From an uncultured Gammaproteobacteria bacterium (GTDB lineage Bacteria; Patescibacteriota; Microgenomatia; Daviesbacterales; UBA10151): 64,000 nt of DNA. The position numbers and the translations under genes were made by a program. The stretch covers positions 1,311 to 65,310 of the forward strand of contig CAYHYM010000002.1 of NCBI GenBank assembly GCA_964360965.1, read 5' to 3'. Under the pieces are notes generated by a model, which saw only the letters and a program-made list of their open reading frames with translations, had not been told where the DNA came from and did not search any database. This document shows, piece by piece, positions 7,505 through 47,304 of the stretch (position 1 is the stretch's first letter; each line of letters begins with the position of its first letter).

Positions 7505-9061
7505 CTAATCTATCAGTTTTCCTTCAAAGATTTCAGAGGCTACTCTAATTACTTCATCATCAGCAGCCACCTCCACATTGGCCACATCTTCCAATTTTTG
7601 AGGCCTGGCGCCCAAAACTGTGGACACCTTAATAGATTTTCCCAAAACATCTGAAAAGACTGATTCCAAAAGATCCCTGGACTTTGGCGCCTCCAATATT
7701 CTTTGATGAAAAGAATAGGGAACTTCCAAAATTACCATACCATCAGAGGCATCACTAACTTTAACTGAACGAAGCAGAGCCTCCAAAGAAAAATTAAAAG
7801 GACGGATGGTTTCTAAAACAAAACTCCATTTTTCTTTAAGCTTTAGGATATCAGGGGAATCAGAATTTGACGGTGGATGATTTATTTTTACTTCGTCATT
7901 CTGGAGGGATGTACCATCTCGGTACGTCCCGATAGAATCTTCCATAGATGCTATCGGTCGCTTCGCTCCCTCCAGCATGACAGAGGATTCGTTTTCGCAT
8001 ATTTCCACCACTGCCAGCTCCAGCGGCAGAGCAGGAATTGAGGCAAACTTCATTTTTTCCAAAGCTTGCTGTAAGGTATTCAAAGCGCCAGCCAAATAGT
8101 TGATGCTTAATTTATCTGCCAGATTGTCAAGCAGTTGGTATTGATCTTTTGGATACTCGAGCTCAACCAAACTTTCCCCCAGATCATGTTTGATAAGCAG
8201 GAGTTTTCGCAAGATATTAAGCATCTCCAAATTAAGCTGCCTTGCATCTACTCCCACCTCTAGTTGTCTGGTAATCTCCAATATGGCAGCTTTAACATCA
8301 TTTGAGGCTATTTTCTCAACTGTGCTAAATGCCTCTTCAAACCTGACTACTTGTAAAACCCCTACCACTAAAGCTGCCGTAATTTTGCCCTCCATGCTTG
8401 ATGCCTGATCTAACAGTTTTACTCCATCTCTAAAACTGCCATCTGAGGCTCTGGCCAGAATTTGTAAGGCCTCATCATCTATATCAATTTTTTCATCTTT
8501 GGCCACTTTTTGTAAAAGCGATAAAAGCTCCGGAACAGTGGCCAGTTTAAAATCCAGCCTTTGCACTCGGGATAAAATTGTGGCCGGTATTTTTTCTCCT
8601 TGAGTGGTGGCCAAAATAAAAAGGGCGTGAGTAGGGGGTTCTTCCAGAGTTTTTAAAAGGGCATTTAAAGCCTCTTGAGTTAACATATGCACCTCATCAA
8701 TGATGTAAACTTTTCTTTTGGCGCTGCTTGGTAAAAGTTTTACATTTTCCCGCAAGGCCCTGATATCATCTATTCCCCTGTTGGAAGCAGCATCAATTTC
8801 TATCAGGTCCAGATTAGATCCATCTGTAATAGATGAACAAGTAGAACATTTATTACAAGGAACATTCTGCTTTGCAGAACAATTTACCATTTTGGCCAAA
8901 ATTCGGGCTGTTGATGTTTTACCGCTGCCGCGAGGTCCTACCAAAAGATAGGCATGGGAAAGTTTTCCAGTCAAATATGCTGACTTTAGGTTTTTTTTAA
9001 CATGATCCTGACCAGCCAGAGCATCAAGAGTTTGCGGGCGGTATTTTAAATAAAGTGTCAT
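7505..9061 (-). CDS. dnaX: DNA polymerase III subunit gamma/tau
   Basis: Walker A GPRGSGKTSTARILAK. Zinc module CSAKQNVPCNKCSTCSS. Contains an 87-bp in-frame palindromic insert at 7895-7981. Confidence 0.9.
   Translation of the reverse strand: MTLYLKYRPQTLDALAGQDHVKKNLKSAYLTGKLSHAYLLVGPRGSGKTSTARILAKMVNCSAKQNVPCNKCSTCSSITDGSNLDLIEIDAASNRGIDDIRALRENVKLLPSSAKRKVYIIDEVHMLTQEALNALLKTLEEPPTHALFILATTQGEKIPATILSRVQRLDFKLATVPELLSLLQKVAKDEKIDIDDEALQILARASDGSFRDGVKLLDQASSMEGKITAALVVGVLQVVRFEEAFSTVEKIASNDVKAAILEITRQLEVGVDARQLNLEMLNILRKLLLIKHDLGESLVELEYPKDQYQLLDNLADKLSINYLAGALNTLQQALEKMKFASIPALPLELAVVEICENESSVMLEGAKRPIASMEDSIGTYRDGTSLQNDEVKINHPPSNSDSPDILKLKEKWSFVLETIRPFNFSLEALLRSVKVSDASDGMVILEVPYSFHQRILEAPKSRDLLESVFSDVLGKSIKVSTVLGARPQKLEDVANVEVAADDEVIRVASEIFEGKLID
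7895..7981. repeat. 87-bp palindromic element with 15-bp GTCATTCTGGAGGGA terminal inverted repeats, inserted in-frame in dnaX
   Basis: Left end gtcattctggaggga. Right end tccctccagcatgac (reverse complement gtcatgctggaggga). Internal cccgatagaatc / gatgctatcggtcg pairing. Confidence 0.8.
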
Positions 9062-9447
9062 TGGTGATGAATTCCTAACAGATGATCTACTCCGTGTTCC
9101 ACTAAATCTTTAATTTCATCTTCCACTGAAATTCCGTCCAAGCTGGCATCTTCCAAAGCTTGAGCATAAGAGATGACAATATCCCCCAATCTTAACCACC
9201 TGTCAGGAGAGGACACAAAACCTACTGGATTTGGATCTTCCAAGGCAAAAGATAAAATGTCAGCTGTTGAGTCAATCCCTCTATATTTTCGATTTAGCTC
9301 ATGCATCTTACGATCGCCTATGATGCTAACACCGATCTCTACTCTACCCGTTACTCTGTGTTTTTTCAACGAGTCTATTATTGCATCTTTAATGGCATCC
9401 CTGTTAATATTATATCTCGGATCGGAAGAAACAATAATATTTATCAT
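9058..9447 (-). CDS. ybeY: rRNA maturation endoribonuclease YbeY
   Basis: Metal-binding H3 motif VEHGVDHLLGIHH. 129 aa. Confidence 0.85.
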   Translation of the reverse strand: MINIIVSSDPRYNINRDAIKDAIIDSLKKHRVTGRVEIGVSIIGDRKMHELNRKYRGIDSTADILSFALEDPNPVGFVSSPDRWLRLGDIVISYAQALEDASLDGISVEDEIKDLVEHGVDHLLGIHHQ

Positions 9448-9455
9448 ATTCCTTT

Positions 9456-9535
9456 GTCATTCCGGACTTGATCCGGAATCTATATAATTATTTGTATGGA
9501 TCCTGAATCAAGTTCAGGATGACACTAGGGTGTCA
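9456..9535. repeat. intergenic GTCAT-family palindromic element (nested hairpins)
   Basis: gtcattccggacttgatccggaatc ... cctgaatcaagttcaggatgacactagggtgtca. Related copy at 11271-11301. Confidence 0.7.
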
Positions 9536-9968
9536 GCTTGCCCCTAACTATCCCACTTACAACATTCCCGTCAGCTTGACCTTTAACCTTCCCCATCACC
9601 TTTCCCCTCACCTTCCCCATATCCTGCAAAGAAGTAGCTCCTATTTCATTTATAGCCTGTTGGACTATATTAGTCAATTCCTCAGTTGAAAGTTGAGCTG
9701 GCAGATATCCTTCTAAAATTTTTAGCTCTTGTTCTTCCTTTAAAGCTTGCTCCTCTCTACCTCCAGACCTAAAACCAGAAGCTGCTTCAGATCTCCTCTT
9801 AGTCTCTTTTTGAATAATAGAAATCACATCCTGATCAGATAATTCCTGTCCTTTGGCAATCTGGACATTATGGATTTCAGATAAAAGCAACCGCAAGGTG
9901 GATATTTTTACTTCCTCACGATCAAACTGCGCCTGTTTTAAATCTTCTTGTATTGTAATCAGTAACAT
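9525..9968 (-). CDS. GatB/YqeY domain protein
   Basis: Typical YqeY sequence with ILEGYLP and GKVMGKVKG motifs. Confidence 0.8.
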   Translation of the reverse strand: MLLITIQEDLKQAQFDREEVKISTLRLLLSEIHNVQIAKGQELSDQDVISIIQKETKRRSEAASGFRSGGREEQALKEEQELKILEGYLPAQLSTEELTNIVQQAINEIGATSLQDMGKVRGKVMGKVKGQADGNVVSGIVRGKLTP

Positions 9969-13412: not shown

Positions 13413-14520
13413 TAAAAGTGACCAGTATCATCAAGGTCAACAGGATGGCAAATCCCACACCATGAACCCATTTTTCAACTTGAGCATGAACCCTTTTGCG
13501 CGTTATGGCCTCAATCAAAAGAAAAAACAGCCTGCCTCCATCAAGAGCCGGAAATGGCAGCAAATTTAACACAGCCAGGTTTAAAGATAACAGGGCCATA
13601 AAATCAAAATAGGAAATAACAGGGTTGTGACTTTTGGTTAAAATGATATTGGCAACATAAGTTATTCCCACAGGCCCTGATACTGTGGAGGAAAGCGGGG
13701 TGAGATTTCTCTCTTGTATAGCTTGTCCCACAAAATTTCCCAAGATTCTTCCTGAATAAGCTATCAAATTAACAGAATGTAAGGGTCCGGATAAAATTTT
13801 TTGCCACATATTTTGATATTCAAGATCAGCAATCTGGATCTGCAAAAGCCCCACTCCCAAAGGCCCTTCTCCTTTGGGCGGCTCTTTTCTGGGGGTTATT
13901 AGCACACTCCGAAAACTTCCCCTTTCACCAGATAAGGTAAGTTTCACCCGCTCTCCTGCCAATTTTTTAATTTTATCCAGCAGGTCCAAACTGCCACTCA
14001 CTGGCTGATCATCAACAGCCATAATCGTTTCTCCTATCTTTATACCGGAAATTTGAGCCGGAGAATCTTTGGATATGCTTTGCACCAATACCTGCGACTC
14101 AACTTTTTGATTTACTCCCACAAACTGATGGTTAAAATAAAGCGGAATTTTAGTTTTAAAACCGGAGAATCCTAAAACAATATAAAGCAATACCCAAGCC
14201 AAAATCAGATTCATTACCACCCCTGCAACCACCACTAATATTCTTTTGCCAACATGCGCTGCTGCAAAAGAGCGTTTGTTCTTGAGGATATCTTTATCTA
14301 CCTCATCCTCTCCCAGCAGGCGTACAAATCCTCCAAAAGGCAGCCAATTTACAGAAACTATTGTTTCCCCAATCTTTTTGCCCCAAGCCCTGGGGGGAAT
14401 ACCAAAACCAAATTCCTCAACTTTAATCCCAAATTTTTTGGCTATTAAAAAATGGCCCAGTTCATGAATAACCACCAAAAATAAAATAGTTAGTATAAAA
14501 ATTATAATGGAAAAAATCAT
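13378..14520 (-). CDS. rseP: site-2 protease RseP (M50 family) with PDZ domain
   Basis: HELGHFLIAKKFG HExxH in TM1. C-terminal LDG motif (PALDGGR). Confidence 0.85.
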   Translation of the reverse strand: MIFSIIIFILTILFLVVIHELGHFLIAKKFGIKVEEFGFGIPPRAWGKKIGETIVSVNWLPFGGFVRLLGEDEVDKDILKNKRSFAAAHVGKRILVVVAGVVMNLILAWVLLYIVLGFSGFKTKIPLYFNHQFVGVNQKVESQVLVQSISKDSPAQISGIKIGETIMAVDDQPVSGSLDLLDKIKKLAGERVKLTLSGERGSFRSVLITPRKEPPKGEGPLGVGLLQIQIADLEYQNMWQKILSGPLHSVNLIAYSGRILGNFVGQAIQERNLTPLSSTVSGPVGITYVANIILTKSHNPVISYFDFMALLSLNLAVLNLLPFPALDGGRLFFLLIEAITRKRVHAQVEKWVHGVGFAILLTLMILVTFNDLSKILSGVY

Positions 14521-15071: not shown

Positions 15072-15142
15072 AAATTAACTTAATACTAAAGACTGAATAC
15101 TTAAAACTTTTTATTTTTTAGTCTTTAGTTTTCAGTCTTAAG

Positions 15143-15628
15143 TTATTCCCCTAAAGCTATTCTTTCGAATTTTCCAACTCGGATATTTTCCCCCAATTTT
15201 CCAACTACAGATTTTACCAGCTGATCAACAGTCATCGAATTATCCCTAATATACTCCTGATTAAGTAATTCCTCAACAGATGAAGGTTTCATGGAAGCAA
15301 TTTGTAAGGTAAGCTCATGAGCCAAATTCTTAAAATCATCAGTCCTTGCAACAAAATCCGTTTCACAAAGAAGTTCCACTAAAACTCCCACTTTCCCTCC
15401 ATGGGAATAAACATCTACCACTCCAGCTTTAACTTCTCTTTCAGATTTGGAGATAGCTTTGTCCAATCCTTTCTGTTTTAAGATTTCTAAAGCTTTTTTA
15501 ACTACCTCCTCTGAGTAACCTTTCTTCTTAGCTTCAACCAATTCTCTAGCAGCCTCTAATGCTTTCTTTACATCTGCTATTCCAGCACCTGTTTGTTCTC
15601 GAATTTTTTTTATATCTTTAATATCCAT
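15143..15628 (-). CDS. tsf: elongation factor Ts (short form)
   Basis: MDIKDIKKIREQTGAGIADVKKAL UBA-like N-terminus. Start moved to the internal Met to avoid overlap with rpsB. Confidence 0.85.
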   Translation of the reverse strand: MDIKDIKKIREQTGAGIADVKKALEAARELVEAKKKGYSEEVVKKALEILKQKGLDKAISKSEREVKAGVVDVYSHGGKVGVLVELLCETDFVARTDDFKNLAHELTLQIASMKPSSVEELLNQEYIRDNSMTVDQLVKSVVGKLGENIRVGKFERIALGE

Positions 15629-32836: not shown

Positions 32837-33044
32837 GGGAAAATATACCAGAAAACTACCATAACTATTCAGTATTTCCCGGAAACTGTCATCCCTGCGA
32901 AGGCAGGGATCCAATTAACTATTTCTGCTAATTAGATTCCCGCATATGCGGGAGTGACACTGGGAAGAACTGAACTCATACAAACTACCCTATTGACAAA
33001 GGTGTAAGTAAAGTATTATTTTAAGAAACAACTGCTCCAAGATA

Positions 33045-33932
33045 ATGGCTGAGAGAATATACAACGAACTCTTTGATCAACAGCACGCTCTTCGAAAACA
33101 TACCTGTGTTGGCTTAGATACTAATGACGAAGTTGTTCAACAAATGGTGGAGGGTGGCCTTGAACTAGAAGGAGATACTCCAGGTGAGCTAGTAGTTGCT
33201 TATAACACCATGGTGCTCGAGGAAACTGCCGATATAGCTGGAATATATAAACCTAATTTACAATTTTACTTAGGGTTAGGATATGAGGCGATAACTACCT
33301 TAAAACAAACCTTCCAAAAAGCTCACTCTATTGCTCCCGAAGTTCCCATAGTTTTAGATGCTAAATTTCAGGATATTGATTCTACTAATAACGGTTCAAT
33401 GAAACTTCTAAAATTCCTAGAAGCAGATGGGGCAACTTTGCATGTTTATTTAGGTAGCCAGGCTAGCAGCCCATTTCTAGATGTAAAAAATATGGGATTC
33501 TTTGCTTTAGATAGAACTTCTAATCCAGGAGCTGGTGAGTTTCAAGATTTATGGGTAGCTACTAATCAGGGAGAGCCAGCAACAAAAAAACTATATGAAG
33601 TGGCGGCTGAGATTATTCATGAGAAATGGAACCGTAATGGCAACTGCGGTTTGGTAGCTGGAGCCACTTATCCAGATGAAGCTGGAATAATTAGAAATAT
33701 TGTTGGATCAGATCTGATGGTGCTATTCCCGGGTGTAGGCACTCAAGGTGGTACAGCACCTGAAATAGTTCTCCAGGCACTTAGAAGAGGTCAAAAGGGA
33801 GTTGTCAATGCTTCCCGATCTACCATATTTGCTGCAAGGTTGGAAGGGGAAACCCAAAGACAGGCCATTAGAAGAGCTGCTTTTAAACTTCACGATGAAA
33901 TATTTGATACTCAAGAGCAATTAGCAGCATAA
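33045..33932 (+). CDS. pyrF: orotidine 5'-phosphate decarboxylase (long type-2 form)
   Basis: VGLDT, the IVLDAKFQDIDST D-x-K-x-x-D-I-x-x-T motif, and C-terminal VLFPGVGTQGG. Confidence 0.8.
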   Translation: MAERIYNELFDQQHALRKHTCVGLDTNDEVVQQMVEGGLELEGDTPGELVVAYNTMVLEETADIAGIYKPNLQFYLGLGYEAITTLKQTFQKAHSIAPEVPIVLDAKFQDIDSTNNGSMKLLKFLEADGATLHVYLGSQASSPFLDVKNMGFFALDRTSNPGAGEFQDLWVATNQGEPATKKLYEVAAEIIHEKWNRNGNCGLVAGATYPDEAGIIRNIVGSDLMVLFPGVGTQGGTAPEIVLQALRRGQKGVVNASRSTIFAARLEGETQRQAIRRAAFKLHDEIFDTQEQLAA

Positions 33933-37720: not shown

Positions 37721-38776
37721 TTAACGCAAACCTCCCGTGACTTTAACTTTAGACAGTAAATCCAGATTATTTAACACTTCCCCACAGCCCCTAACCACAG
37801 TAGTTAGCGGATCATCTACCACGACAACCGACAGCTTAACCTCCTGAGTAATTTTTTTATCCAAACCAGCAAGTAATGCCCCTCCACCGGCCAAATATAT
37901 ACCATGGTCTAAAATATCAGACATTAGTTCCGGAGGTGTTTCTTCCAAAATCTCCTGAATCCCGGAAACTATTTGATTGACTGTGGGAGCAATAGCTTCC
38001 CTGACCTCATCAGAGGTAATTTTTAAACTTTTTGGCAGTCCTGTTGATAAATCTCTTCCTCTTACCACAGCCTCTTTATTCCCCATGTCATAGGCTGAAC
38101 CTATGTCAATTTTTATCTCTTCAGCTGACCTTTGTCCTATCAAAAGAGAGTAGCGCGTTCTTAAATAATTGATGATATCCTCATCCATCTCATCACCACC
38201 AATCCTCAAAGATTTATTTATCACCATTCCTCCCAAAGATATCACCGCAATCTCTGTGGTTCCCCCCCCAATATCTGTAATCATCACCCCTTGCGGCTCC
38301 TCTATACTCAGTTTGGAGCCAATGGCAGCTGCCATTGGCTCCTCTATTAAAAAAGCCTGCCTGGCTCCAGCTGACAAACAAGCATCCTGTACTGCCCTTC
38401 TTTCCACCTCTGTCACCCCGGATGGAATGCCCACCACTACCCTTGGTTTGGGAATTTTTGGCAGCCCCCATTTGGTGGTGGGGGGGTTTTTATGAACCTT
38501 TTGGATAAAATAGCGCAGCATGGCCTCAGTGGTATCAAAATCGGAAATAACCCCGTCCCGCAAAGGTCTGACTGCTTCAATGGCAGCAGGGGTTCTGCCC
38601 AGCATTCTTTTGGCCTCAGAGCCAACAGCCAAAATTTGTCTGGTTTTTCTATGCAGCGCCACCACACTTGGCTCCCGGATGAGGATTCCTTTGCCTTTAA
38701 CATAAACTAAGGTATTAACAGTGCCTAAATCAATACCTATATCATGGGAGAAAATTTGCCAGATGCGATCTAACAT
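37721..38776 (-). CDS. mreB: rod shape-determining protein MreB
   Basis: Actin-like ATPase start IGIDLGTVNTLVYVKGKGIL. DIGGGTTEIAV phosphate-2 motif. Confidence 0.9.
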   Translation of the reverse strand: MLDRIWQIFSHDIGIDLGTVNTLVYVKGKGILIREPSVVALHRKTRQILAVGSEAKRMLGRTPAAIEAVRPLRDGVISDFDTTEAMLRYFIQKVHKNPPTTKWGLPKIPKPRVVVGIPSGVTEVERRAVQDACLSAGARQAFLIEEPMAAAIGSKLSIEEPQGVMITDIGGGTTEIAVISLGGMVINKSLRIGGDEMDEDIINYLRTRYSLLIGQRSAEEIKIDIGSAYDMGNKEAVVRGRDLSTGLPKSLKITSDEVREAIAPTVNQIVSGIQEILEETPPELMSDILDHGIYLAGGGALLAGLDKKITQEVKLSVVVVDDPLTTVVRGCGEVLNNLDLLSKVKVTGGLR

Positions 38777-38842: not shown

Positions 38843-40933
38843 ATGCTTGACAAAATCATTCAATATTCTTTTTATCTTTTATTCTTTCTCACTCCCCTTT
38901 TTTGGACTCCTGTAAATTATGAGCTTTTTGAATTCAATAAAATGCTGCTGGTTTACTTTTTAACCATTGTAATAGTGCTGACTTGGATTTTAAAAATGAT
39001 AAATCAAAAAACACTGATCTTAAACAGGACCCCCTTAGATATTCCACTTCTTTTATTTTTGGGAGCGAATATCTTGTCTACCATCTTTTCCATAGATACC
39101 CATACTTCTATTTGGGGATACTACTCAAGATCAAATGGGGGGCTTCTATCCATAGTTTCATACCTGCTATTATATTGGGCCTTTGTTTCAAACATGGATG
39201 CGCCCAAGGTCTTAAACACCCTCAAGTTTGGGTTAGTATCAGGACTGATCATCTCTTTATGGGGAATTGCAGAACACTTTGGAGTGTCACCTTCTTGTGT
39301 GATCTTGCGAGGGGAATTCAATGCCTCCTGTTGGATACAGGATGTGCAATCCAGAGTTTTTGCCACTTTAGGCCAGCCCAACTGGCTAGCGGCATACCTT
39401 GCCATGTTAATTTTTCCAAGCTTATATTTCTTTTTAACAGCCAAAAACCGTATACTACAAACTACCTACTACCTACTACTAGTTACCTCTTATCTGGCTT
39501 TTACTTTTACCTACTCCAGAGGCCCAATTTTGGGGCTGATAACTGGAATGATAGTGTTTCTCATTCTGTCATTCCCGCGTAGGTCATCGACCGTCGGGAT
39601 GACAAAAAGGGTACTTATCGTTTTAGCTACATTTTTTCTTATCAATCTCCTCTTTGGCTCTGCCTTAACCAACTTTAGACTGGTCTCCAAATTTGCCCCC
39701 CCACCCAGACCGGCTATTTCACTACCTACTCCAGCCTCAACTGTCACCCAGCTTGAACAAGGCGGAACCGAATCAGGACAAATCCGCTTGATTGTCTGGA
39801 AAGGGGCTTTGGAGATCTTCAAACATTTCCCAATTTTTGGTTCAGGTGTGGAAACCTTTGCCATATCCTACTTCCAGTTCCGGCCACAGGCTCATAATTT
39901 GGTCTCAGAATGGGATTTTTTATATAACAAGGCCCACAATGAGTTTTTAAATTATTTAGCCAATACCGGACTGGTGGGACTGGGGACATATTTGATAATT
40001 ATTATAACTTTTATAATAATTATACTAAAGCGCAAAGGAACCGACCATTTACTACTTTTATCCCTCCTTGCCAGCTATTTAAGCTACCATGTGACCAACT
40101 TTTTTGGCTTTTCCGTTGTTGCAACAGCCCTCCTTTTTTACCTATTTCCAGCATTAGCCTTTGTTGCCACAGAATCCACAAAAGCGCTTAAATTGTCAAC
40201 TGTCAATTGGATCTACCGTCGTCCCCTTTACACCAAACTTGCCAAAGGCGTGGTGATCTTTTTAACTCTCTATCTTCTATATTTCATTATTAAGCTTTGG
40301 TATGCGGATAACCTTTTTGCCAAAGGCATGAAAGAATCAGAGACCGGTAATGTGGGATCATCTTATAATTTTTTATTGTCTGCCAGCATTTTAAACAGCA
40401 ACGAGCCATTTTATAGATCTGAGCTGTCATTTGCAGCAGCCTCTGCAGCGCTGTCTCTTTCACCGGGTGAAGCCACGCTTTCGACAAAACTTAAAGATCA
40501 GGCCACTCAAGAATCAGAAAAAGTGCTTAAATCATCCCCCAAAAATGTGTCATTTTGGCGAACTGCCATCAGAACCTATTTTCAACTATCAGCTCTTGAT
40601 GAATCATTTTTCCCAAAAACCATGGCAGCCCTTGATCAAACCATCAAGCTGGCTCCCACTGATGCCAAACTGTACTACAACAAAGCCATACTTTTGGGAC
40701 AAAAAAATGATAATGAAGATGCCAAAGAAGCTTTAAAAAAAGCCATTGAACTTAAACCAAATTATAGGGAAAGTTACCTTGCTTTAGGGATATTTTACTT
40801 TGATGAAGGAAAGAGTAAAGAGGCTGTTGAGACTATGCAAAAAGTGCTGACTTTAGTGCCGGGTGATGCTGATGCGCTTAATCAGCTTAATGAGTGGGGC
40901 AAGCAAGGAATTGCTACGCAATCAGGGCAATGA
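38843..40933 (+). CDS. polytopic membrane protein with an O-antigen ligase/polymerase-like (Wzy_C) domain and C-terminal TPR repeats
   Basis: More than 10 TM helices. NKAHNEFLNYLANTGLVGL matches the WaaL/O-antigen-ligase motif. C-terminal TPR-like region (AKLYYNKAILLGQKND...ALKKAIELKPNY). Contains a 36-bp GTCAT-TIR insert at 39568-39603. Confidence 0.7.
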   Translation: MLDKIIQYSFYLLFFLTPLFWTPVNYELFEFNKMLLVYFLTIVIVLTWILKMINQKTLILNRTPLDIPLLLFLGANILSTIFSIDTHTSIWGYYSRSNGGLLSIVSYLLLYWAFVSNMDAPKVLNTLKFGLVSGLIISLWGIAEHFGVSPSCVILRGEFNASCWIQDVQSRVFATLGQPNWLAAYLAMLIFPSLYFFLTAKNRILQTTYYLLLVTSYLAFTFTYSRGPILGLITGMIVFLILSFPRRSSTVGMTKRVLIVLATFFLINLLFGSALTNFRLVSKFAPPPRPAISLPTPASTVTQLEQGGTESGQIRLIVWKGALEIFKHFPIFGSGVETFAISYFQFRPQAHNLVSEWDFLYNKAHNEFLNYLANTGLVGLGTYLIIIITFIIIILKRKGTDHLLLLSLLASYLSYHVTNFFGFSVVATALLFYLFPALAFVATESTKALKLSTVNWIYRRPLYTKLAKGVVIFLTLYLLYFIIKLWYADNLFAKGMKESETGNVGSSYNFLLSASILNSNEPFYRSELSFAAASAALSLSPGEATLSTKLKDQATQESEKVLKSSPKNVSFWRTAIRTYFQLSALDESFFPKTMAALDQTIKLAPTDAKLYYNKAILLGQKNDNEDAKEALKKAIELKPNYRESYLALGIFYFDEGKSKEAVETMQKVLTLVPGDADALNQLNEWGKQGIATQSGQ

Positions 40934-46879: not shown

Positions 46880-46914
46880 CTGGATTTACTTAAGACTGAA
46901 GACTTAATACAAAA

Positions 46915-47271
46915 ATGGCATTCAGATTTAGGAATTTTCCGATTTATGAGGATATACGTTCGTTCATTAAAGATATCTATCAATTGGCTAATAAGCTACC
47001 AAAACAGGAACAATTTGAACTAGCTTCTCAATTAAGGCGCGCAGCTACCTCTATATTACTTAATCTAGCAGAAGGTTCTATGAAAAGATCTGATGCGGAG
47101 TTTAATCGTTTTCTAATGATCTCAGTGGGTTCAGTAAGCGAAATTGTAGCTATTTTAGACGTTTGTTTTGACCTGGATTATATTAGTGCTCCAACACATC
47201 AACAATTTATGCTAAAATGTGAATCTATTGCTAAAAGACTCTATGGTTTTAGTAGAAGATTAAAATCTTAA
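46915..47271 (+). CDS. four-helix-bundle protein (23S rRNA intervening-sequence protein family)
   Basis: LAEGS motif and LL.IS.GS...E pattern of the TIGR02436-like family. Located among tRNA genes. Confidence 0.6.
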   Translation: MAFRFRNFPIYEDIRSFIKDIYQLANKLPKQEQFELASQLRRAATSILLNLAEGSMKRSDAEFNRFLMISVGSVSEIVAILDVCFDLDYISAPTHQQFMLKCESIAKRLYGFSRRLKS

Positions 47272-47304
47272 GTCTTTAGTGTTATGTATTAAGTATTTTG
47301 TAAT

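Follow-up and report, generated by a model that had tools for sequence, protein, structure and literature searches.

Rickettsia palindromic elements (RPE), which reportedly go back to work of Ogata and co-workers in 2000 and of Amiri and co-workers in 2002, are said to be palindromic repeats lying in frame inside protein-coding genes. These elements measure about 100–150 bp, are located in loops or in regions exposed at the surface, remain in place at orthologous sites and decay by internal deletion. The REP/REPIN repeats are GTAG-headed hairpins which are mobilised by RAYT transposases (IS200/IS605-like Y1) and are extragenic by definition. Bacterial MITEs (miniature inverted-repeat transposable elements) such as the Correia elements are small, non-autonomous and bounded by inverted ends, and they can be fused to or sit within open reading frames (ORFs) (PMC10969869). 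SsnA, a GIY-YIG protein of 94 amino acids, binds and cuts the hairpin repeat NTS of Neisseria (CGTCATTCCCGCGMAVGCGGGAATCYRG) in single-stranded form only, and the base immediately 3' of the palindrome, a C, is the most critical one for this binding (PMC11893778). NTS cluster near genes of membrane and surface proteins and modulate recombination, and just 2% of them are intragenic in N. meningitidis; a degenerate form, the Ssn-related motif (SRM), is widespread across bacterial phyla and often flanks ssnA (PMC11893778). Rickettsia is among the genomes with more than 300 SRMs; Patescibacteria are absent from the main text of that study (PMC11893778). The subject of the present analysis is a 36-bp palindromic segment (36-mer) inside a membrane protein gene on contig CAYHYM010000002.1 of assembly GCA_964360965.1, of which a stretch of 64,000 nt (positions 1,311 to 65,310, hereafter the window) was analysed. 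The 36-mer is probably the centre-deleted, in-frame remnant of an NTS/SRM-type hairpin doublet in a tolerant membrane-protein loop of Candidatus Daviesbacteria.

The 36-mer (GTCATTCCCGCGTAGGTCATCGACCGTCGGGATGAC) comprises 12 codons, starting at base three of codon 242 and ending at base two of codon 254, and reads (L)SFPRRSSTVGM(T). An initial annotation of this DNA had given position, length, divisibility by three and reading frame correctly and had described terminal repeats of 10 perfect base pairs. The repeats have to be revised, since the reverse complement of GTCATTCCCG is CGGGAATGAC and the actual right end is CGGGATGAC; the arms GTCAT(T)CCCG and CGGGATGAC thus pair over 9 bp with a 1-nt bulge, the bracketed T. 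Both GTCATTCCCG, as an exact match, and CGGGATGAC occur only once in the window. The DNA fold of the 36-mer has a z-score of −2.2. Palindromes with 9-bp arms, 0 or 1 bulge and a loop of 3–30 were counted at 145 sites of the window, overlapping and nested sites separately, versus 87 ± 14 in 30 dinucleotide-preserving shuffles. Arms of such quality are common in the window and the palindromy of the 36-mer by itself is within chance. Judged by sequence comparison, the feature that goes beyond chance is the match to repeat copies. This match decides on the idea of a chance palindrome in native coding sequence unrelated to any repeat, with which the frequency of inverted repeats (145 versus about 87) would agree: 24 nt are identical to at least six independent repeat copies and 23/24 to an orthologous element, 12 nt are identical to the NTS head, and the G+C content is about 61% (hand count) versus 42.5% in the surrounding 2-kb block and about 40% in the whole window. 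The idea was rejected because of the sequence matches to repeat copies and is hardly conceivable.

The first 12 nt of the 36-mer (GTCATTCCCGCG) are equal to NTS positions 2–13. The published definitions are CGTCATTCCCGCGMAVGCGGGAATCYRG with at most one mismatch for NTS (PMC11893778, methods) and the search pattern HGTCWYN(0-2)YYVSBRHN(0-5)WNVSBRGN(0-2)RNCYNB for SRM. No NTS was found in the window even with up to five mismatches, positions 2–13 being all that matches in the 36-mer, and the SRM pattern has 0 matches in the window, the 36-mer with its flanks included. The oriented SRM architecture of GTC, hairpin and 3' C is present in three further elements of the window, at 9456, 32888 and 7895; the 36-mer possesses the head, its own 3' arm is absent and the 3' C is replaced by G on both strands. 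The 36-mer derives from the NTS/SRM family but lies outside the published NTS/SRM definitions.

Comparison was made with the DNA of orthologues, five found by exact protein look-up and 80 loci (79 distinct, as L082 duplicates the L002 contig) from species-representative genomes; loci are given here with L numbers and proteins with P numbers. The SRM pattern matched 13 times in the 1.43 Mb of orthologous loci versus two matches in one shuffle, and six sequences lie within three mismatches of NTS. Some modules of the relatives come close to identity with the NTS of Neisseria; one of them, TGTCATTCCCGCGAAAGCGGGAATCTAT, is present in L003 and L017, has at most three mismatches and also matches the SRM pattern. 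A looser census of the same loci counted 74 GTCAT-hairpin-ATC modules. Inside genes and in frame are 48 of these 74, in a sample biased towards the host gene, versus the 2% intragenic NTS of N. meningitidis. In a set of 30 distinct short modules neither head nor tail varies, nor do the two outer A-T/T-A pairs; of the eight stem positions the inner six differ, with up to four pair types each, and are paired throughout, although in a set selected for pairing only the variety of the pairs is informative. On these alignments the family unit is an oriented module of GTC, a hairpin beginning and ending with AT, and then C(C/T). Two modules are commonly arranged head-outwards in Candidatus Daviesbacteria genomes, forming an inverted doublet of 66–105 bp. 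The family resembles NTS/SRM in its head, in its orientation, in its apparent multi-copy occurrence and in its frequent inverted pairs; it differs in the frequency of in-frame copies and in the host, a bacterium of the Candidate Phyla Radiation (CPR). A metagenome scan for GTCATTCCCGCGTAGGTC gave 28 loci, and an extended module GTCATTCCCGCGTAGGTCATCGACTCTGAGG...CTCAGACTCGAAGAGCGGGAATCC was present at no fewer than six unrelated AT-rich sites (L090, L097, L100, L102, L108, L109). The left 24 nt of the 36-mer are identical to these six (24/24) and match L001/L094 in 23/24 positions. A second copy of the 36-mer form was not found in the window, the metagenome scan or the viral collection; viral contigs scanned with the 18-mer head gave no match, and the missing 3' arm CTCAGACTCGAAGAGCGGGAATCC has no copy in the window.

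More than 5000 homologues of the host protein exist, the best-scoring named ones being members of the O-antigen ligase family from Candidatus Daviesbacteria or Microgenomates. In an alignment of the best 120 homologues (62–76% identical) the part that follows the conserved SRGP(T)LGL helix is hypervariable in length, and many of the loops contain the repeat-typical peptides SFPRKRESI...GSRIKSGMT, ...NWIPAFAGMT or HPEGKARRI...SLRMT. Elements of the GTCAT type are present in about 20 of roughly 66 orthologue loops, at three or more insertion points; the remaining loops hold unrelated palindromes or none. The junction of the window (CT/GTCAT) is occupied by doublets of 105 bp in L001, 75 bp in L002/L082, 75 bp in L025 and 66 bp in L003, the last of which matches the published SRM pattern with both halves, and by shorter sequences beginning with GTCATTCTGGA in L004 and L005. 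Since the same junction is occupied in orthologues, the presence of the 36-mer does not indicate a recent jump, and the active or recent mobilisation proposed in the initial annotation is not shown. Conservation of the segment in homologues that lack palindromic DNA, which would refute the initial annotation, was not seen: homologues sharing the peptide also share the palindromic DNA.

The 36-mer consists of two module heads of 24 nt and 12 nt and of neither hairpin. When the window sequence GTCATTCCCGCGTAGGTCaTCGAC/CGtcGGGATGAC is aligned to GTCATTCCCGCGTAGGTCtTCGAC-(69 nt)-CGcaGGGATGAC of L001, 23/24 nt on the left and the right end GGGATGAC are shared, and about 69 bp (23 codons) are missing in the window compared to this closest orthologous copy. 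The right-hand 12 nt (CGTCGGGATGAC) equal the reverse complement of the left-module head of L025 (GTCATCCCGACG) exactly and agree with the right end of L001 (CGCAGGGATGAC) in 10/12 positions. The sequence TAGGTCnTCGAC is part of an inner palindrome extending the left hairpin and is absent from the simpler form in L002/L025. The window keeps a part of this derived feature, which speaks for a shortened, not an ancestral, form. A common origin of the site is favoured by the junctions and the GGGATGAC end that are shared with L001. The short loop joining two transmembrane helices of the Wzy_C-type protein would once have held a hairpin doublet. This loop varies widely in length and tolerates inserts; any insertion surviving in such a gene has to be stop-free and frame-preserving. 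The long doublet would have formed one large palindrome whose centre was lost, for example by slippage or by cleavage across the hairpin, leaving the outer heads to pair as 9-bp arms; recognition by a nuclease would have been lost with it.

The Wzy_C match covers residues 212–383 of the 696-amino-acid host protein, in line with the O-antigen-ligase-like membrane protein named earlier, and the TPRs are C-terminal (Pfam). A Kyte-Doolittle scan places the segment between the hydrophobic stretches 227–245 and 257–275, which agrees with the loop position given in the initial annotation; the second stretch runs into a hydrophilic loop of 101 amino acids with the conserved Wzy_C motifs. An AlphaFold2 model (AF2) built from 36 sequences, with a pLDDT below 50 over most of the membrane domain, was used for the helix-coil-helix call only and has, with low confidence, a coil at 243–249 between helices 228–242 and 250–271. 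The 36-mer supplies most of a basic loop of 14 residues (SFPRRSSTVGMTKR) with four K/R and no D/E, which by the positive-inside rule can be inferred to lie in the cytoplasm. The span from FTYSRG to LFGSA measures 46–100 amino acids among about 66 orthologues and 53 in the window. The 12 stop-free codons belong to an intact ORF with full-length homologues and to an inter-helix loop of variable length; without them the span would be 41 amino acids. Because the loop without it is shorter than in any orthologue, the remnant is kept as coding sequence that supplies needed loop length, not as a mobile element, and this need may be the reason why the shrinkage ended at 36 bp.

Palindromic inserts of other types than GTCAT occur in the same loop in L019, L020, L030, L049, L069 and L075 as well as in L007, L017, L021, L022 and L046. 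They include a CACCC(T/C)AAGGGTG type encoding LHPKG and a TTCAGAATAC... type encoding YFIQNTRKTQ..., and therefore the loop accepts several unrelated repeats.

Including the 36-mer, the window contains four GTCAT elements (Table 1). A pairing scan for GTCAT...ATGAC detected those at 7895–7981 and 9456–9523; it missed the one at 32888–32958 because its right head is GTGAC instead of ATGAC, and the hairpin census added it. All three consist of two outward-facing modules, each with GTC, an AT-bounded hairpin and C(C/T). The ORF around the first is DNA polymerase III gamma/tau-like as read from its sequence; this element encodes VMLEGAKRPIASMEDSIGTYRDGTSLQND, and its left half is itself a long hairpin. 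The second has the stem types CCGGA/TCCGG and CTGAA/TTCAG and, in keeping with its position outside genes, a length not divisible by three. The third is located upstream of an ORF starting at 33045 and is the best-preserved family member in the window.

Table 1 Positions of the 36-bp segment, its host gene and the related elements in the window
Feature	Position	Strand	Remarks
36-bp segment (probable remnant)	39568..39603	+	Peptide SFPRRSSTVGM plus parts of L242 and T254; from sequence, ORF/frame and alignment to orthologous elements
Left part	39568..39591	+	Head GTCATTCCCGCG plus TAGGTCATCGAC; first 24 nt of the extended-hairpin NTS/SRM-type subfamily; 3' hairpin arm GCGGGAATCC missing
Right part	39592..39603	-	CGTCGGGATGAC; inverted head of a second hairpin module, reading GTCATCCCGACG on the minus strand; remainder missing
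Host gene	38843..40933	+	Membrane protein of 696 aa; Wzy_C (O-antigen ligase-like) and C-terminal TPR; from ORF and Pfam
Upstream hydrophobic helix	39521..39577	+	Residues 227-245, the last three encoded by the element; Kyte-Doolittle, AF2 helix 228-242
Downstream hydrophobic helix	39611..39667	+	Residues 257-275; Kyte-Doolittle, AF2 helix 250-271
87-bp (29-codon) GTCAT...ATGAC element	7895..7981	-	In frame in the 518-aa minus-strand ORF 7505-9061
68-bp doublet	9456..9523	+	GTCATTCCGGACTTGATCCGGAATC ... GGATCCTGAATCAAGTTCAGGATGAC; in the gap between the minus-strand ORFs 9058-9447 and 9525-9968
Intact 71-bp intergenic doublet	32888..32958	+	GTCATCCCTGCGAAGGCAGGGATCC-spacer-GATTCCCGCATATGCGGGAGTGAC; from the hairpin census; not covered by any ORF of 50 aa or more

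The initial annotation had taken the 36-mer for the smallest member of this family and had suggested active or recent mobilisation, which amounts to an intact MITE with its own terminal inverted repeats. That it belongs with the three larger elements was borne out, as its ends GTCAT...ATGAC are like theirs; a self-contained member it is not, just two outer heads being left after the loss of the hairpins. The fold as a hairpin and the left 24 nt without point divergence from the consensus would also fit an intact MITE. However, the arms are not perfect, both family-defining hairpin modules are absent with failure of the NTS and SRM patterns, longer elements lie at the same junction in orthologues, and the window, metagenome and viral scans gave no further copy of this form. 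A target-site duplication is lacking at the 36-mer, which is flanked by ...TTCT and AAAAAG, and a consistent one was not found at 7895, 9456 and 32888 or in the metagenome copies either. An intact MITE is thus highly unlikely; as a mini-transposon the 36-mer is neither complete nor demonstrably active. It shares with MITEs the small size, the lack of autonomy, ends that look inverted and the position within an ORF, but what look like terminal repeats belong to the heads of two hairpin modules rather than to ends bound by a transposase; with target duplication lacking and terminal repeats doubtful, it does not pass for a classical MITE. No transposase or cognate insertion sequence with matching ends was noticed near the elements, where no systematic transposase scan of the window was made. 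REP/REPIN repeats are similar in their conserved 5' head, in forming singlets and inverted doublets, the latter as a larger hairpin, in their varying but paired stems and in an enzyme acting on single-stranded hairpins that is proposed to spread or maintain them. They differ in the head, which is GTCAT in all modules and not GTAG, in the proposed enzyme, GIY-YIG and not HUH/Y1, and in the copies inside genes. For the way in which the 36-mer became part of a protein RPE are the closest analogy, with an in-frame palindrome in a permissive loop and internal deletion; taxon and sizes differ, and the likeness rests on behaviour, not on RPE consensus sequences. A literature search brought up nothing relevant on repeat-encoded peptides or palindromic in-frame elements in CPR/Patescibacteria and no paper connecting RPE with GIY-YIG; the more than 300 SRMs of Rickettsia hint at a link between RPE and SRM.

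Several points weigh against the derivation of the 36-mer from a doublet at this site. Conservation of the element ends far exceeds that of the host gene, unlike in a passively decaying ancient insertion: the ends are 96–100% identical between lineages with just 65–70% identity in the 150-nt flanks. The left 24 nt of window and L001 match in 23/24 and the right 30 nt among L001, L002 and L025 in 29–30/30 positions, while the flanks are 61–77% identical over all pairs and 64–72% among the window, L001, L002 and L025. Such ends call for constraint on the sequence, for gene conversion by other copies or for recent insertions recurring at a single spot. The element types are scattered over a star-like neighbour-joining tree of 120 orthologues, and therefore vertical inheritance of the site is not demonstrated; the tree was built to map the loop states and is not used to claim single or multiple gains. 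The window protein is nearer to P0003, P0004, P0006 and P0002, which are without this element type (distances 0.235–0.264), than to P0007/L001 (0.284). Moreover, none of the elements in the window matches the published SRM pattern, a GIY-YIG ORF is missing in the 64-kb window, and the exact deletion end-points cannot be reconstructed, as two alternative paths fit; a junction microhomology TTCG...TTCG does not reproduce the observed sequence, and no specific junction is asserted.

Some of these data could also be read as a recent event at the same site. The loop or a prior relic would then be a preferred target, and a copy would have been inserted, or the relic overwritten by conversion, after the split from all sampled relatives, with truncation afterwards or already on arrival. 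The identity of the left 24 nt to the subfamily consensus at unrelated sites speaks for this, because the flanks are about 32% divergent from L001, the nearest element-bearing orthologue; with about 16% divergence per lineage roughly four substitutions are expected in 24 nt and, by our own arithmetic, P(0) is about 0.015. The differing element types at one junction (L003 versus L002 versus L004/L005) and the elements at three or more nearby but different loop positions point in the same direction. Against it stand the identical left and right junctions together with the derived GGGATGAC end shared with L001, and nothing beyond a preceding T is visible as a target-site motif at the elements. 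A module in a second gene, described below, is likewise simpler to explain by inheritance and constraint. A recent same-site event is rather unlikely, and the remnant of a doublet is still preferred. With regard to age, the left 24 nt are free of substitutions against the subfamily consensus while the flanks differ by about 32%; the data fit either an old site kept near the consensus, by constraint or conversion, or a recurrent target.

The second gene is an apparent methionyl-tRNA formyltransferase gene (fmt) that carries a single module (GTCATCCTGAACTTGATTCAGGATCTA) at the same codon in L008, L040 and L053. The module, GTCATCCTGAACTT(G/T)(A/T)TTCAGGATCTA, is located at 13682–13708 in L008, 13527–13553 in L040 and 14728–14754 in L053 and encodes SHPELxSGS. 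It is 26/27 identical between the lineages, while the upstream 30 nt of L008 and L040 share about 70% identity. Here, too, a repeat is conserved better than its host gene.

Better conservation of element DNA than of the host gene, here and in fmt, would also be expected if a functional hairpin were retained at the DNA or RNA level, either as a residual nuclease or recombination signal that bounds the exchange of a surface-glycan gene segment or as an mRNA hairpin that pauses translation between the two transmembrane helices. The RNA fold of the 76-nt context (−25.3 kcal/mol, z = −3.3) and the Neisseria NTS, which modulate recombination near membrane and surface protein genes (PMC11893778), are in agreement with such a role. 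But the 36-mer has neither the hairpin modules nor the 3' C critical for SsnA binding in Neisseria, the loop contents are wholly different among orthologues with many lacking a palindrome, and an Rfam search of 39300–39900 gave no match; a function of this kind is very improbable. A bolder proposal is that in-frame NTS/SRM hairpins in conserved genes of Daviesbacteria, perhaps of CPR generally, are not decaying leftovers but actively maintained DNA signals marking recombination boundaries in cell-surface genes, which selection or nuclease-triggered conversion keeps near the consensus and of which the 36-bp remnant is still recognised. This must be regarded as doubtful.

The family of the 36-mer may have been spread or maintained by small single-strand nucleases of the GIY-YIG (Ssn) type, as proposed for Neisseria. 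By the Neisseria rules the 36-mer itself should be a poor Ssn substrate, as it has G on both strands in place of the critical C behind the palindrome. Two small PF01541 ORFs, both beside tRNA-Trp, lie in the 1.43 Mb of loci from the relatives. Homologues of the small GIY-YIG ORFs occur commonly in CPR metagenomes, some with an adjoining SRM-like hairpin; NCBIfam and PDB comparisons of the proteins gave generic GIY-YIG matches only. A local nuclease-repeat cassette is not claimed for the window because the search beside the sampled repeat copies yielded only two GIY-YIG genes.

Small GIY-YIG genes of 74–81 amino acids were seen beside tRNA-Trp(CCA) in L008 (20337–20734), in L114/L115 (P0123) and in L118/L119 (P0137). 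A duplicated 5' half of tRNA-Trp precedes the gene in L008 and L114/L115 and the intact tRNA-Trp follows it. The anticodon loop of the duplicated half is broken by a perfect hairpin with a 13-bp stem (ATCCCGCCCTTCG/CGAAGGGCGGGAT), followed by CC. This arrangement looks like a nuclease-plus-hairpin cassette that targets the anticodon loop of tRNA-Trp.

By themselves the 36 bp are an ordinary relic and their context is more informative. A repeat family that was biochemically characterised in Neisseria in 2025 is present almost unchanged in a CPR lineage, where its copies are often in frame inside genes, at sites shared by divergent species and with DNA better conserved than the host genes. This links Ssn-related hairpins with protein-coding palindromes of the Rickettsia type. 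The about 20 independent states of one loop form a natural data set for hairpin insertion, homogenisation and decay. A practical warning concerns annotation: the peptides SFPRKRES, WIPAFAGMT and SHPELxSGS in CPR proteins are derived from repeats.

Further repeats of the window are a perfect 28-bp palindrome (GGAGCCAATGGCAGCTGCCATTGGCTCC) at 38315–38342 inside the minus-strand MreB-like ORF 37721–38776, and AT-rich inverted repeats at 15078–15143, 46887–46907 and 47268–47288 which share (T)TAAGACTGAA(T/G)ACTTAA / AGTCTTTAGT and may represent a second, unrelated repeat family. The GC skew is strongly negative over positions 1–32000 (cumulative −2.56) and roughly flat over 32000–64000; the change near 32 kb could reflect a shift in replication-strand or gene-orientation bias.

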